A stretch of 58,025 nucleotides of DNA from a virus (taxonomy: Duplodnaviria > Heunggongvirae > Uroviricota > Caudoviricetes), in IMG/VR virus record IMGVR_UViG_2859821903_000003, positions 1 through 58,025 of that record. One strand, 5' to 3'. The stretch's first letter is position 1; every line of letters begins with the position of its first letter. The notes under the pieces are model-generated. The model ran no database searches and had not been told where the DNA came from. It saw nothing but the letters and a program-made list of their open reading frames with translations. Shown here piece after piece: positions 1 through 15,995 of the stretch. The position numbers were made by a program, and so were the translations under genes.

Positions 1-1461
1 ATGAAAAAATTACTGCGTCTTTTTTTCCCGCTCTCGCTGCGGGTACGTTTTCTGTTGGCAACCGCTGCGGTAGTACTGGTGCTTTCGCTTGCCTACGGAA
101 TGGTCGCGCTGATCGGTTATAGCGTCAGTTTCGATAAAACTACGTTTCGGCTGTTACGTGGCGAGAGCAATCTGTTCTATACCCTTGCGAAGTGGGAAAA
201 CAATAAGTTGCATGTCGAGTTACCCGAAAATATCGACAAGCAAAGCCCCACCATGACGCTAATTTATGATGAGAACGGGCAGCTTTTATGGGCGCAACGT
301 GACGTGCCCTGGCTGATGAAGATGATCCAGCCTGACTGGCTGAAATCGAATGGTTTTCATGAAATTGAAGCGGATGTTAACGATACCAGCCTCTTGCTGA
401 GTGGAGATCATTCGATACAGCAACAGTTGCAGGAAGTGCGGGAAGATGATGACGACGCGGAGATGACCCACTCGGTGGCAGTAAACGTCTACCCGGCAAC
501 ATCGCGGATGCCAAAATTAACCATTGTGGTGGTGGATACCATTCCGGTGGAGCTAAAAAGTTCCTATATGGTCTGGAGCTGGTTTATCTATGTGCTCTCA
601 GCCAATCTGCTGTTAGTGATCCCGCTGCTGTGGGTCGCCGCCTGGTGGAGTTTACGCCCCATCGAAGCCCTGGCAAAAGAAGTCCGCGAACTGGAAGAAC
701 ATAACCGCGAATTGCTCAATCCAGCCACAACGCGAGAACTGACCAGTCTGGTACGAAACCTGAACCGATTGTTAAAAAGTGAACGCGAACGTTACGACAA
801 ATACCGTACGACGCTCACCGACCTGACCCATAGTCTGAAAACGCCACTGGCGGTGCTGCAAAGTACGCTGCGTTCTCTGCGTAGTGAAAAGATGAGCGTC
901 AGTGATGCTGAGCCGGTAATGCTGGAGCAAATCAGCCGCATTTCACAGCAAATTGGCTACTACCTGCATCGTGCCAGTATGCGCGGCGGGACATTGCTCA
1001 GCCGCGAGCTGCATCCGGTCGCCCCACTGCTGGACAATCTCACCTCAGCGCTGAACAAAGTGTATCAACGCAAAGGGGTCAATATCTCTCTCGATATTTC
1101 GCCAGAGATCAGCTTTGTCGGTGAGCAGAACGATTTTGTCGAGGTGATGGGCAACGTGCTGGATAATGCCTGTAAATATTGCCTCGAGTTTGTCGAAATT
1201 TCTGCAAGGCAAACCGACGAGCATCTCTATATTGTGGTCGAGGATGATGGCCCCGGTATTCCATTAAGCAAGCGAGAGGTCATTTTCGACCGTGGTCAAC
1301 GGGTTGATACTTTACGCCCTGGGCAAGGTGTAGGGCTGGCGGTAGCCCGCGAAATCACCGAGCAATATGAGGGTAAAATCGTCGCCGGAGAGAGCATGCT
1401 GGGCGGTGCGCGGATGGAGGTGATTTTTGGTCGCCAGCATTCTGCGCCGAAAGATGAATAA
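1..1461 (+). CDS. phoQ: Sensor histidine kinase PhoQ (complete, 486 aa)
   Basis: Full-length translation matches E. coli PhoQ from memory ([19 protein letters not shown]..., HAMP, histidine kinase and ATPase motifs). Confidence 0.95.
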
Positions 1462-2195
1462 ATATGTCCTTTTATCACCATATCAAGACAAACCATTGAT
1501 TTAATTAAATAATCTGCACTGAAAAAAGTGCCAAAAATCGCAAATTGACTACACCATTAACTACACCGTTCGGTGCACCGTATGAAACAACGTGGAACAA
1601 ATAGACACAAGAAATATACAGGCGGATCATCTTTCCAGGGGAAGCGCACCAATTCATGAGGGGCGTTAATGTCTATATGGGGATCCCCACCTACCGGAAT
1701 TTTTTTCCGGTTAAACGTTAATCAGGCTGGTGGGCTTTACCTGTTCGGTAGGTGTTATGATTATCGTAATACCTTTCCCCAATGGGGTAAAAGCATCAAC
1801 CGTAACGAAAGTCGTTATGGTTGCCACTGATACCCCCAATTTGGGTATCACGAGTAAGCCCCAAAATCTGGGTGTTACTCTTACTACCCAAACTACGGGT
1901 AGTTTCCGTAGTTTCATGGTCGAGTTGCAGATCTGCAACTCCCCCATTAACCACAGGCGAATTTCCGCCTTCGGTCATTCCTTAATCATCTGCGTAATCA
2001 TAATGATTATTCAGCAAGCGCAATTTTGCGCTTTGCTTAAAGTTCAGCGAGTTACCGCGCCGACTTCCTCAAATTGAGGTTTCCGAAAATATCAGCGGGT
2101 TAGCGATTAAGCTGATCATTAATTAAACTGCGAAAATGTCGTAGTTGTGAGGGGTGTAGCCAACCCATTTTTGGGCCGTCGGGAATATCAACCAG

Positions 2196-7672: not shown

Positions 7673-8830
7673 TTAATCGTCGTCCTGTGGCAGTTCCAGA
7701 ATCTTGATCGCGTTCGAATCCACCACGCCACCGCCTAAATATTTCTGCGCGAAAATTTTGATGAAGCCCGGCTCTGTGAGGTTGTCCGGTCTGGTGCGAA
7801 CACCTGTTTCGTGATCAACAATGTAGTAACCGCGTTTGAAGTCACCCAGGGCAATAACGTTATCCGGCATAAACTCCAGATATTCGACCGGAAGGCCCAG
7901 CAACGTATCAGGATCACCCGCCTGTAAACGGTCACGCCAGATGTAATCACCGTTCGCGTTCTTCACCTTCTGGAGTTTTGCCTCCGTCGTGGAGTTAACC
8001 ACCCAGACCGCGTTTTTGCGGTATTTTTTACGTAATGCAAATTTCAGGTCGATCAGCGGGTCCGCAGATGTCCACGCCAGAGATTCGGAAGGTTTAATTA
8101 CCTGCAACGTACCAAAATCACGCTCTTTGTCGTTCTTCTCTGCACGGGGTACGGATAAAAAGCCTTTTGCTTTTTTGTCACCGTCGCCCACAACCAGATC
8201 GCTTTCTTCGGTTTCCGTGAAGGTGTCGCCAATCTCGCCCGTCAGCCATGAAAGGATGTCCACATCGGAAAAATCCACGATTTCCTGCGTGGTGCGCGGG
8301 TACGCATAGACCGGATACAGCTTAATGCTCACCTCGTTAATCTGCGGGGTGCTGGTCTGTTCGCGTGCCTTACCCTCTTCACCGTGGTTAACGGTCGCAC
8401 CGCCAGCGGAAACAAGCTGCTTAAACTCGTTGCTGCTGATTTTCTTCACGGTACAGATGCGGCGCATGGTGGATTCATCCGTCAGCATTCGCATGATTTC
8501 GGTGTTCAGTTCGGGGATAACGGTATAACCACCATCAGCGGGAACGCCTGTACTCAATGCGCGGGTTTCACCTGTCAGAATGTAGTGACGTAGTTCGGCG
8601 GGGTCAGTGGTCTGGCTGTTTTTGCCTGGTTTACTGCGCTCTTCGTCAGCAACGGCCTCAAGGCGGGAGATGTCTTTATCGAGTGATTCAGCTTTAGCGC
8701 GTAATTCGTCAAATTTTGCGCCCTCAGCATCGTTAAGGCTGCGGTTTTCTTTTTCCGCGTTCTCCAGCATGTCGCGCATCTGATTTTTAATGGCGGTTTT
8801 CTGCTGGCGTAATTCGATTATTCTCGGCAT
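7673..8830 (-). CDS. Major capsid protein (HK97 fold family); start probably MPRIIELRQQ
   Basis: About 385 aa with N-terminal coiled-coil delta domain then capsid-like body; first gene of the head operon. Confidence 0.75.
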   Translation of the reverse strand: MPRIIELRQQKTAIKNQMRDMLENAEKENRSLNDAEGAKFDELRAKAESLDKDISRLEAVADEERSKPGKNSQTTDPAELRHYILTGETRALSTGVPADGGYTVIPELNTEIMRMLTDESTMRRICTVKKISSNEFKQLVSAGGATVNHGEEGKAREQTSTPQINEVSIKLYPVYAYPRTTQEIVDFSDVDILSWLTGEIGDTFTETEESDLVVGDGDKKAKGFLSVPRAEKNDKERDFGTLQVIKPSESLAWTSADPLIDLKFALRKKYRKNAVWVVNSTTEAKLQKVKNANGDYIWRDRLQAGDPDTLLGLPVEYLEFMPDNVIALGDFKRGYYIVDHETGVRTRPDNLTEPGFIKIFAQKYLGGGVVDSNAIKILELPQDDD

Positions 8831-9042
8831 AAAAAAAGTCCTGCAGTTAAGTAAGGAACTCCAGGACGCGGCAAACACTCAACCGTTTTTCATAAGGAAA
8901 TCAGCAATCGCACCGATCGTTTTCCCGCCTGGTAATGAATATTGGCGAGCACATTAACAGGCGGGAAAGTGGCCCCAGCGTCCTGGCACCACGGGCGAGA
9001 ATAATCATGATTCAGTTCGGGTAAAATATGCCGATCCGGTCA

Positions 9043-9072
9043 GCGAACAACGTGGAACAACCACGAACAAAT
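9043..9072 (-). promoter_or_regulatory. Array of 10-bp-phased TTGTTC hexamers upstream of the capsid operon
   Basis: Minus-strand reading TTGTTCGTGGTTGTTCCACGTTGTTC; related arrays at 1584-1611, 14425-14478 and 15811-15838. Confidence 0.45.
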
Positions 9073-9117
9073 AATTTACAAAACATGACAAAAAGCCGGA
9101 TTGCTCCGGCTGTGTGA

Positions 9118-10128: not shown

Positions 10129-10406
10129 GATTCCAACTCTCCGGTTTTAACGTTGATTGTTGTTACCTGTTCCGCTTCGGCAATCTCCCGTTCTGTCAGC
10201 GTGGCAAAGTTTGCCGCCGCCGTGGTCATGAATGCGCTTATCAGGTCGGGATGTTCCTTCGCGTATCCTTCCCGCGTGTGGCGGTCTATCGTTCTGATTG
10301 CCACCTTTAAGGTGTGCTCAGTCATGTCTAACGCTTTATATTTTGGCTCTGTTCTGTCTCTGCGTTTTTGGGTCATTTCTCGCAACCTCTCACTTTTTCG
10401 CCTCAC
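10125..10406 (-). CDS. Hypothetical island protein (start uncertain, possibly the internal Met at 10325)
   Basis: ORF whose 5' portion overlaps the iteron array. Confidence 0.3.
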   Translation of the reverse strand: MRRKSERLREMTQKRRDRTEPKYKALDMTEHTLKVAIRTIDRHTREGYAKEHPDLISAFMTTAAANFATLTEREIAEAEQVTTINVKTGELES

Positions 10407-10578
10407 TTTTTCAAGCGTCTCACTTCGTCGCAGTTGGGATTTTCGGTTTTTCTATGTGTATGTTTCATAAGTATTTTTTTACCCCTCACTTTTGAGGATG
10501 TATACAGGTCGAAAAGTGAGGGGGAGCGGGCTAATTTTGGCCCTCTTTCTATCCCCTCGCTTTTGCTCCTCACTTTTA
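10379..10578. repeat. Iteron array, CTCACTTTT-type repeats (at least 6 copies, one inverted); candidate island origin of replication
   Basis: Copies at 10379, 10393, 10410, 10486, 10570, a CTCGCTTTT variant at 10553 and an inverted copy at 10511-10524, immediately 3' of the replication gene. Confidence 0.5.
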
Positions 10579-13963: not shown

Positions 13964-14152
13964 TTAATGAACTGCCTTGCAGCTATCCTTCCAGGCCAGA
14001 ACCTCGGATAAAGACCAGCCAACGGAACGACCGCCAAGTTTACGACGTGATGGGAATTGTCCGGCCTTTTCCAGGCGGTAGCGACACGTACGGCTAAGGC
14101 CGGTTAGTTTTTCGCATTCTTTTTCACGTATAAACCGATCAGTGCTTAACAC
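13964..14152 (-). CDS. alpA: AlpA-family phage transcriptional regulator / excisionase-like protein
   Basis: 62 aa; LSRTCRYRLEKAGQFPSRRKLGGRSVGWSLSEVLAW matches the AlpA pattern; next to int. Confidence 0.75.
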   Translation of the reverse strand: MLSTDRFIREKECEKLTGLSRTCRYRLEKAGQFPSRRKLGGRSVGWSLSEVLAWKDSCKAVH

Positions 14153-14424
14153 TATTGCCCCCTTTCGTTTCTTAAAGAGTCATCAGGTGTCTTATTGTGT
14201 CGTATTGTTCCCGCTAGAGTGATGAATGGCAAATACTGAGGATGTATGATTTACAGAAAATGAAAAAGTAAGAATAAAATCTTTTAAATTCATGTTAATA
14301 CAAAGGCATAAAATATTGTTCCATGCCTTTTTTCTCGCTCTTTAAAGAGTGATTCGCTAGTGTATAAAAAACCAGTAACACATTAAAAATCAGCTACTTA
14401 TAAATCCGTACGCTTTTTCGCCTC

Positions 14425-14478
14425 TTGTTCGTAGTTGTTCCACATTGTTGCTCATTGTTGCACGTTGTATCTGTTCGC
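14425..14478 (+). promoter_or_regulatory. Array of five or more 10-bp-phased TTGTTC/TTGTTG hexamers between int and alpA
   Basis: TTGTTCGTAGTTGTTCCACATTGTTGCTCATTGTTGCACGTTGTAT in AT-rich intergenic DNA upstream of alpA. Confidence 0.45.
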
Positions 14479-14516
14479 ATATCCAGTATGCGCATACTGA
14501 AAAAACACGAAAAAAA

Positions 14517-15746
14517 TTATTTTCTTCTGGCTACTGGTAGCGTGGTTACGTTTTCATGTGTTCCCGCCAGTATCCCTAACCGCTCCGTCCACATATCCAG
14601 CGCATTGCGTTTCGCATCCAGATAACGGGAATGATTATAAACTCGCTGCATTCCTGGCATCTGGTGGCCTGTAAGCTGCTCCACGACATGCGGATCAACG
14701 CCTAAATCGTTCAGCATGGTTGTAAAGGTGCGCCGGATGTCATGCAGTGACCAGTGAGGGTGTTTAAGCCTCCTGTGCGCTAATCTGCCGTACTGCGACA
14801 CGCTGGTTTCCTGTTTCACTTCCCCCAGCAATAAGCCCGTGTGCCTGTTCTGCTCCACCAGCTGCGTGACGAACGGCATTATCGCTTCCGGTATGGGCCG
14901 GAATATGGCTACCTTCGTTTTGCTGTGCTCCTTCGGAACAGTCCAGAGCATTTCGGTAAAATCCCACTCGCCGATCTCCGATAACCTAAGTTCGACCGTC
15001 CGGCATCCGAACACAATCAGGAGGCGGATTAGCGCGATGTAGTAGGGGGAGAATATTTTTTTGTCCAGTGCCTGCAATAATTCGCCAAGTTCTTTGTTGC
15101 TTAAGACACGCTCGCTTATATCCGGTTTTTTCCCAACGTCCGCCACACTCATATCATCAAGAACGTTGCTGATTGCATAGCGCCGCTTCCGGCAGAACTT
15201 AAGCGCCTGCTTGCATGTCTGTAGCAGGAACCCGGCGGAAACAGGGGCTTGCTTTGCCACCCGATCAAAACAGGCCAGCCAGTGCCGTAGCTCGCATTTA
15301 TCCAGCGGCATAGGGCCAATGTGCTGTATTACGTGATTATTTAGCCGCTTTTTCAGTGGGTCATAATCCACACGGTTTTCCTTTGCGTACGACTCAAGCC
15401 AGTAGGTGAGCGCATCACCAACCGTTACCGGCTTTAACGCTTCCTGTACGGTGTAATTCATCTCATGACGTGGATTTTTCCCCTCAGCCAGCCATGCGCG
15501 ACACTGGGCGGCTTTTTCCCTGGCTGATTTCAGACTCAGATCAGGATAATTTCCCAGCTTAATGCGTTCCGGTGGTGCCCCCCTTCCCGTTCCGGCCCTG
15601 TAAGTGAAATACCAGGTCAATTTCCCTGATGTTAAATATTTCACGCTCAAGTTTCCGCCATCACTATAAAACGTGTTTTTCTCCGCTGGCTTACCATGAA
15701 GTTTCCTTAGCAAGGTATCGCTCAGTTTGTTCATTGCTCTGCTCAC
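14517..15746 (-). CDS. int: Tyrosine integrase, P4-type
   Basis: 409 aa; N-terminal arm-binding-like domain (KLSDTLLRKL...SDGGNLSVKY), catalytic HDIRRTF and LLGHQ...RVYNHSRY. Confidence 0.85.
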   Translation of the reverse strand: MSRAMNKLSDTLLRKLHGKPAEKNTFYSDGGNLSVKYLTSGKLTWYFTYRAGTGRGAPPERIKLGNYPDLSLKSAREKAAQCRAWLAEGKNPRHEMNYTVQEALKPVTVGDALTYWLESYAKENRVDYDPLKKRLNNHVIQHIGPMPLDKCELRHWLACFDRVAKQAPVSAGFLLQTCKQALKFCRKRRYAISNVLDDMSVADVGKKPDISERVLSNKELGELLQALDKKIFSPYYIALIRLLIVFGCRTVELRLSEIGEWDFTEMLWTVPKEHSKTKVAIFRPIPEAIMPFVTQLVEQNRHTGLLLGEVKQETSVSQYGRLAHRRLKHPHWSLHDIRRTFTTMLNDLGVDPHVVEQLTGHQMPGMQRVYNHSRYLDAKRNALDMWTERLGILAGTHENVTTLPVARRK

Positions 15747-15995
15747 GTTTTACCCCCTCTTTACGAAAAAGTGACTACACCAGTGACTACACCGATCGTT
15801 GCACAAAGGGCTACAACGTGAAACAAGCTGGAACAAGGAAAATCACAAATCTGTTGATAATCAAAAACATAATGCACAACCTGAAACATTATGAAACGGC
15901 AAAAAACACTAATTGATAAAATATGCCCATACTTCACGCATTACGTTAAGCATCCGTTATAATCGGTTGCAGATACCAGCCTGTGGATGCTTAAC

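Follow-up and report, generated by a model that had tools for sequence, protein, structure and literature searches.

AlpA is the master switch of Gram-negative PICIs, and published work has not decided between a role as transcription factor, a role as excisionase and a combination of the two. In EcCICFT073, AlpA activates its own promoter on a plasmid, AlpA and int together suffice for excision and replication without a helper phage, and the activity of Pint is not changed by AlpA (PMC6092414); in EcCIEDL933, mutation of alpA abolishes induction and transfer (cf-PICI paper). We found no report in the literature of AlpA binding sites in PICIs, and the cooperation of AlpA with integrase is named as an open question in the PICMI paper. 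The viral record analyzed here (58,025 nucleotides, herein the window) poses the question at the level of DNA: arrays of TTGTTC-type hexamers stand on both att arms of an island, upstream of its alpA gene and upstream of its capsid operon. Which protein reads them, and what would its binding do?

An EcCIEDL933-type island with four phased arrays

The window contains a 14.5-kb capsid-forming PICI (cf-PICI) of the EcCIEDL933 type, inserted between phoQ and roxA. Alignment of both junctions with the empty phoQ-roxA site gives a crossover core of AAATATG and a core-to-core size of 14.5 kb (Table 1). From ~1.7 to 15.7 kb every gene lies on the minus strand. Pfam assignments comprise a P4-type integrase, an AlpA of 62 residues, a DUF4222 protein, an AAA_25 helicase, SSB, PerC, and a packaging operon in which the major capsid gene is followed by genes for the prohead protease, portal, head completion protein, connector, HNH protein and TerS. 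The island thus combines int, alpA and rep with its own capsid, protease, portal, connectors, HNH and TerS genes, as a capsid-forming PICI does, and this content matches the gene set of EcCIEDL933-type islands, which measure about 15 kb (cf-PICI paper). The alpA region of E. coli O157 strains is 99 to 100% identical to that of the window (EDL933, 99.1%). Elsewhere in the window, well outside the island, there is a cluster of three tRNA genes (Arg-tct, Arg-tcg and Met).

Table 1. Positions of sites and genes in the 58-kb window. Array units are written in the TTGTTC orientation.
Feature	Position	Strand	Sequence or remark
attL crossover core	1460-1466		AAATATG; overlaps phoQ stop codon; from alignment to empty site
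IHF consensus match	1489-1501	-	AATCAATGGTTTG; between core and left-arm pair; one of only 4 in the window
Left-arm pair	1547-1567	-	GGTGTAGTT / GGTGTAGTC, 12-bp spacing; candidate integrase arm-type sites
Left-arm array	1581-1610	-	Units 1610 to 1581: TTGTGTCTAT TTGTTCCACG TTGTTTCATA
Conserved stretch inside left arm	1680-1725		GGGGATCCCCACCTACCGGAATTTTT(T)CCGGTTAAACGTTAA
Major capsid gene	7673-8878	-	Pfam; first gene of packaging operon, downstream of array
Capsid-leader hairpin	8831-8867	-	Hairpin plus U7
Capsid-operon array	9041-9070	-	Units 9070 to 9041: TTGTTCGTGG TTGTTCCACG TTGTTCGCTG
Intrinsic terminator after perC	9094-9111	-	-14.2 kcal/mol, z -4.7; directly upstream of capsid array
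17-nt repeats	10394-10577		TTTTTCGCCTCACTTTT type, three copies
alpA	13964-14152	-	62 aa; proposed binding protein; Pfam Phage_AlpA PF05930, E 5e-17
Proximal alpA array	14195-14214	+	TTGTGTCGTA TTGTTCCCGC
alpA-leader hairpin	14303-14331	-	12 bp; -12.5 kcal/mol, z -3.6
Distal alpA array	14425-14474	+	TTGTTCGTAG TTGTTCCACA TTGTTGCTCA TTGTTGCACG TTGTATCTGT
Palindrome	14484-14499		CAGTATGCGCATACTG
Integrase gene (P4-type tyrosine)	14517-15746	-	Pfam Arm-DNA-bind_3 (N-terminal arm-binding domain) and Phage_integrase
Right-arm pair	15773-15793	-	GGTGTAGTC twice, 12-bp spacing; between array and int start; candidate integrase arm-type sites
Right-arm (int-proximal) array	15797-15836	-	Units 15836 to 15797: TTGTTCCAGC TTGTTTCACG TTGTAGCCCT TTGTGCAACG
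attR crossover core	15919-15925		AAATATG; from alignment to empty site
Three-tRNA cluster	37641-37890	-	Arg-tct, Arg-tcg, Met

The four TTGTTC arrays described in an initial annotation of this DNA are all present, and all are intergenic; the left-arm array has, in addition, a degenerate fourth unit at 1571 through 1580. TTGTTC lies on the coding (minus) strand in three arrays, and the array upstream of alpA is inverted. When TTGTTCN4TTGTTC was searched with at most one mismatch, 7 matches were obtained against 0.35 expected, a number reached in 0 of 100 shuffles, and six of the seven fall inside the four sites; a three-unit pattern gave 10 matches (0.62 expected), every one of them within the same sites. 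No other place in the 58 kb has at least three TTGT in exact 10-bp phase, relaxing the search to two units of TTGTT adds no further place in the window, and no run of at least three phased TTGT was found in ~90 kb of chromosomal flank from five other E. coli loci. The motif scan that the initial annotation had called for, run here on the window and these flanks, thus finds the arrays far above chance and confined to the island. Three to five direct repeats at exact 10-bp phase are present at all four sites, an arrangement typical of RDFs, which bind tandem repeats one turn apart, head to tail (Apl paper, PMC7498355). One figure had to be corrected: the arrays at the island ends were said to lie about 38 bp inside them, a distance taken from the GACTACACC repeats instead of the crossover core. 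Measured from the core, the left-arm array lies at 115 to 144 bp and the right-arm array at 83 to 122 bp.

We compared the island with five E. coli loci at four insertion sites, one from Shigella and 80 from IMG/VR. The arrays recur in the same four contexts in ~85 related islands, with cores and phase kept and with drift in the spacers and in the number of units: 51 to 90 bp upstream of int, which is also their position in the window; ~280 to 340 bp upstream of alpA, inverted and with 3, 5 or 6 units (about 80 islands); on the far att arm; and, in capsid-forming islands only, upstream of the capsid gene. The int-alpA module of EcCICFT073 bears the same arrays. When int-alpA spacers are aligned, the ACAA columns are invariant and the spacers between them vary. 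The arrays are real and conserved, and they are almost certainly functional. They occur alongside an AAA_25 helicase or a P4-type primase and alongside different packaging modules; since they persist despite different replication and packaging genes, they belong to the int-alpA module. Three loci were retrieved when species-representative genomes were searched with AlpA, and two of these (L008 and L009, AlpA ~52% identical) have no TTGT arrays.

The bare three-unit pattern also occurs outside PICIs. When IMG/VR was scanned for exact matches to three TTGTTCN4 units, >120 contigs were returned, of which only ~23 are PICI-like; in the remainder, no gene for an AlpA-like protein or a P4-type Int lies within 5 kb of the pattern. 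Among these pattern matches (L091 through L208), 10-bp-phased TTGTTC arrays are seen in several unrelated families of viral contigs. One example has TTGTTCCACA three times, flanked by GGGCCGGAACAA inverted repeats, and further arrays adjoin Prim-Pol/AAA_25, VapE-like or HTH_17-plus-portal genes.

The company of Prim-Pol/AAA_25 and VapE-type replication genes in unrelated contigs is what speaks for regarding the arrays as replication iterons or packaging signals. For the PICI arrays this reading is very improbable. Iterons cluster at one origin and are specific to their initiator; here there are four dispersed copies, two of them in att arms, and they persist with replication proteins as unrelated as an AAA_25 helicase and a P4-type primase, and with unrelated packaging modules. 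On the strength of this distribution and independence from the rep type, iterons are excluded. The island has, moreover, a separate candidate for its replication origin just after the rep gene, where a 17-nt repeat occurs three times, 83 to 84 bp apart, starting from the stop of the AAA_25 helicase gene.

A second repeat beside the arrays on the att arms

Both att arms share an imperfect direct repeat of 76 nt that consists of GACTACACC twice at 12-bp spacing and then the 10-bp array; no other GACTACACC pair is present in the island. Along the excised circle, in the direction of int transcription, array and pair are followed by ~80 bp, core, ~83 bp, array, pair, 27 bp and int. The phased array thus occupies an att arm between the core and a candidate pair of integrase arm-type sites, the location of an RDF array, and the right-arm order of core, array, GGTGTAGTC pair and int is that of KplE1 and P4. 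Between core and left-arm pair there is a sequence that fits the IHF consensus, which is suggestive only.

The paired repeat has counterparts in other elements. In the GenBank record of P4, the attP arm repeats are pairs of GGGGGCA at 12-bp spacing, two per arm and in one orientation, and P4 Int, like the integrase here, carries Arm-DNA-bind_3. In addition, between its core and the pair proximal to int, P4 has TCCG three times at 10-bp phase; only two other arrays of this sort occur in P4. In CP4-57, the home of the original AlpA, GTCCG repeats are followed by a 12-bp-spaced TAGGCCCA pair upstream of intA. The arm consensus of ICEMlSymR7A, TGKTGGTATC, loosely resembles the GGTGTAGTC pair.

The composite arm signature, a 10-bp array with a 12-bp pair, offers a sequence-only finder of PICI att arms and a means of typing Int/AlpA modules. 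Two further elements lie near the left arm. In PICIs at the smrA-abgR site, another 10-bp-phased array, of four CGTGA or GTCAC units (L004, 2901 through 2942; L005, 7158 through 7199), lies farther inside the island than the left-arm TTGT array, by ~200 bp in L004 and ~450 bp in L005, and may be a site for another protein, such as TerS. Just inside the left arm of the window there is a stretch that is conserved in T1 and T2 islands (module types defined below; also at about 5340 through 5385 of L006). This stretch may resemble the cos region of lambda.

Integrase or AlpA as the reader of the arrays

The initial annotation had proposed that one protein binds cooperatively along one face of the DNA, and had named AlpA or the arm-binding domain of the integrase. 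Cooperative binding by a single protein is consistent with all of our findings and with the known mode of RDFs (PMC7498355). Between the two candidates AlpA is favored; the integrase is disfavored, since another arm repeat follows Int and the arrays also stand at promoters. Part of the evidence comes from recombinant modules.

The int-alpA modules of these islands can be sorted into types T1, T2 and T3, and the two genes give different groupings. AlpA joins T2 with T3 (75% identity and the same recognition helix, VCRTTRYE), against 58% for T1 with T2 and 61 to 64% for T1 with T3; the Int N terminus joins T1 with T2 (77 to 80%), against 62% for T2 with T3 and 64 to 67% for T1 with T3. Because the AlpA and Int trees disagree, the modules must have recombined, and recombinants show which repeat goes with which protein. 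L006 (AlpA T2, Int T2) has the 12-bp pair GGTGTAGT; L078 (AlpA T3, Int T2) has GGTGTAGTTA; L148 (AlpA T2, Int T3) and L085 (AlpA T3, Int T3) both have TGTGTGGTCAG. The pair therefore tracks the Int type in all four islands, even on the arm ~10 kb from int. As it also matches the arm repeats of P4, the pair is more likely than the array to be the integrase arm site.

The 10-bp arrays, in contrast to the pair, do not separate Int T2 from Int T3. Position 7 of their units is occupied by C in T1 islands and by G in T2 and T3 islands, alike in the arms and in the arrays upstream of alpA, so that by sequence they appear to group with the AlpA type and not with the Int type. Among 97 typed loci there is no T1 AlpA with a non-T1 Int, and only the T2/T3 recombinants are informative; the link between array and AlpA accordingly rests on one evolutionary split together with exclusion.

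These patterns bear on the view that the arrays are the arm-type sites of the N-terminal domain of the P4-family integrase, which would then act as a regulator at the internal arrays as well. The arrays do stand on both att arms, in the same orientation and at the distances usual for arm sites; Int carries an Arm-DNA-bind_3 domain; and KplE1 offers a precedent in IntS, which represses its own promoter via its arm sites (PMC2951348). We nevertheless consider an integrase code of this kind quite unlikely. It is the GGTGTAGTC pair, and not the array, that tracks the Int type in recombinants, that matches the layout of the P4 arm repeats and that loosely fits the ICEMlSymR7A consensus, and a single small domain would hardly recognize two motifs that are unrelated. 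The arrays are, besides, not confined to att: those of alpA and the capsid operon lie 1.3 and 6.8 kb from the nearest core, at promoters where no role of an integrase is known, and AlpA alone activates PalpA on a plasmid (PMC6092414). In the island L108 the capsid array is unchanged despite an Int that is only 42% identical and a different arm pair, TGTGTATTGCA.

L108 (IMG/VR contig 2778261094_000010), itself capsid-forming, encodes two AlpA paralogues in tandem, which share 48% and 58% identity with the AlpA of the window. Its insertion site appears to lie within a terminase-like coding sequence, and the island may be an example of the helper-embedded PICIs described in PMC10111431.

The fold predicted for AlpA is that of an excisionase. 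A single-sequence AF2 model (pLDDT 86) has as its best PDB match the GIsul2 excisionase (8c3t; TM 0.79/0.85) and also matches the excisionases RdfS and Pukovnik Xis (8dgl and 4j2n are among the matched structures). On this model AlpA is a small winged-helix protein, so that an RDF candidate is encoded by the element itself. Taken with the arrays, their conservation and the separate integrase-linked repeat, this leads us to infer that AlpA is the binder, and its effect at each site is put forward below in the same spirit. The arrays are probably AlpA operators, with AlpA serving both as excision factor and as transcription activator, along the lines of Vis, TorI, Cox and Apl. The published self-activation of AlpA and the excision by AlpA and int fit a protein that binds both the alpA arrays and the arms. 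The unaltered activity of Pint is a mild difficulty, the right-arm array being so close upstream of int.

The nearest mapped parallel is KplE1 (CPS-53) of E. coli K-12, in which the sites of the excisionase TorI have been mapped and mutated (cores GTTCG, GATCG and GTCCG); a block of three TorI sites with 2-nt separation abuts the -35 of PintS and is followed by IntS arm sites and intS (PMC2951348). The GTTCG core is common to TorI sites and to the T2 and T3 arrays. Both systems have direct repeats one helical turn apart, the order core, RDF sites, Int arm-type sites and int (in the island both kinds of site are candidates), and an Arm-DNA-bind_3 integrase with a small winged-helix RDF, here putative. 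They differ in that TorI sites occupy one arm only (attL, int-proximal), whereas here both arms have arrays; in that TorI represses intS, whereas PICI AlpA is reported as an activator without effect on Pint; and in that TorI has no known sites at promoters of structural genes. Identity between AlpA and TorI is only 29%. It is unusual for RDF sites to occupy both att arms, and this counts against AlpA as the reader.

P4 Vis belongs to the Pfam family Phage_AlpA, and its GenBank annotation reads "excisionase and transcriptional regulator". As cited in the Apl paper, Vis bends att DNA and has RDF sites that overlap the int promoter (PMC7498355). P4 resembles the island in its paired, 12-bp-spaced repeats on both arms and in having an AlpA-family protein, which in P4 is by annotation both excisionase and regulator of late promoters; it differs in motif (TCCG versus TTGTTC) and in carrying the phased array on the int-proximal arm only. 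The TCCG array of P4 would, by this analogy, be the Vis site. Apl of phage 186 and Cox of P2 read five to seven direct repeats at 10- to 11-bp spacing at att and at promoters (PMC7498355). They likewise couple excision to transcriptional switching, but they are repressors of other sequence families, whereas AlpA is a reported activator and one target here would be the capsid operon of a satellite. Lambda Xis is similar in that winged-helix monomers bind X1, X1.5 and X2 head to tail, at sites ~10 bp apart, and bend the arm beside the Int arm sites (PMC7498355); it differs in acting on one arm only and without a transcription-activator role of this kind. A dual-purpose RDF is therefore a familiar mechanism, and the finding fills a gap and overturns nothing.

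Proposed consequences for excision, alpA and the capsid operon

If AlpA reads the arrays, its synthesis after helper induction would lead to monomers bound head to tail, one per helical turn, and to bending of the DNA. At the att arms, AlpA filaments beside the Int arm-type sites (the GGTGTAGTC pairs) would bend both arms and act as RDF, allowing Int to excise the island. The same protein at the internal arrays would link excision to the switching on of its own regulator gene and of the capsid genes.

At alpA, the distal array comprises five TTGT(T)(C/G) units, 273 to 322 bp upstream of the start codon and inverted relative to alpA transcription. To the four arrays described initially we add a proximal one of two units. 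It overlaps the -10 of a promoter-like sequence just upstream of alpA, TTGCCA-17-AACAAT (14232 through 14204, minus strand), and its TTGCCA and phased ACAA units are kept in the alignment of int-alpA spacers. Beside the distal array, a search in either direction gave no convincing sigma-70 promoter. The distal and promoter-proximal arrays together may mediate the auto-activation by AlpA reported for EcCICFT073. An inverted array ~300 bp from the start codon is a point against its being an AlpA operator.

For the array upstream of alpA at least, a helper-phage or host inducer might be the binding protein. The model would be Cox of P2, whose 10-bp-phased Cox boxes in P4 lie upstream of the late promoter (PLL) that drives vis; P4 has three 10-bp repeats of the TTAAAG type upstream of vis. 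Some array units presumably resemble a DnaA box (for example, TGTTCCACA versus TTATCCACA), and the DnaA-box reading was rejected because the conserved part of the units is TTGTTC and not the CCACA part. Helper phages activate alpA transcription through some factor, although AlpA alone, in a nonlysogen, triggers excision and replication and activates PalpA (PMC6092414). A helper or host factor could bind the alpA array but is not required, AlpA by itself being enough to trigger the cycle. From one module type to another, moreover, the change at position 7 parallels AlpA, an island protein, and one and the same island is induced by helpers as unlike each other as lambda and phi80. We therefore regard an inducer from helper or host as an unlikely reader of the arrays, and return to AlpA.

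Other elements surround these arrays. A conserved RNA hairpin is located in the alpA leader, downstream of the distal array and upstream of the proximal promoter. Its G-U pairs function on the alpA-sense strand only, and it shows what appear to be compensatory changes from island to island. A perfect palindrome of 16 bp, between the int stop and the distal array, is found in window-type islands and replaced in CFT073-type islands, so that it is not a conserved part of the regulatory region. In L085 (2648 through 3365) there is an extra ORF between int and alpA, the AlpA has an N-terminal extension, and the phased CGTTC units stand immediately before the alpA start codon and not ~300 bp upstream.

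At the capsid operon, the array has three full TTGTTC units, the last of which takes the -35 position, 16 nt upstream of TATTTT (9028 through 9023). With the perC terminator immediately upstream, the array marks the start of a separate transcription unit. The block TTTTGTAAATTATTTGTTCGTGGTTGTTCCAsGTTGTTC is intact even where both flanks have diverged; it occurs in 408 of 5,426 complete E. coli genomes and is unannotated in every one. With AlpA as the reader, the array abutting a weak promoter would allow AlpA to recruit RNA polymerase and place the capsid and packaging operon under its control, a prediction that this reading makes for cf-PICIs.

The full TTGTTC core is present in each unit of the capsid array with T1, T2, T3 and L108-type modules, and the array is unchanged across AlpA types that are only 48 to 68% identical. 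This is a point against AlpA as the binder, as it demands a recognition core shared by all of them; conversely, a full core in every unit would let divergent AlpA alleles read the array. If they do, it would explain how the capsid module occurs with at least four different int-alpA modules. The wider idea that one AlpA operator code, the phased TTGTTC core, serves Gram-negative PICIs for excision at both arms, for self-amplification and as a portable late capsid promoter is, in our judgment, doubtful. For work on PICI induction, the conserved candidate operator provides a probe for binding and a target for point mutations that could separate excision from activation.

AlpA might also act in part downstream of the arrays: with conserved hairpins between array and gene, in the alpA leader and before the capsid ATG, it could aid read-through of leader terminators. 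The capsid hairpin, with its U7, lies immediately before the capsid ATG, and AGGA, the likely Shine-Dalgarno sequence, falls in its 3' half; the divergent leaders of L057 and L073 lack the hairpin. This element could be a leader terminator or a translational control element.
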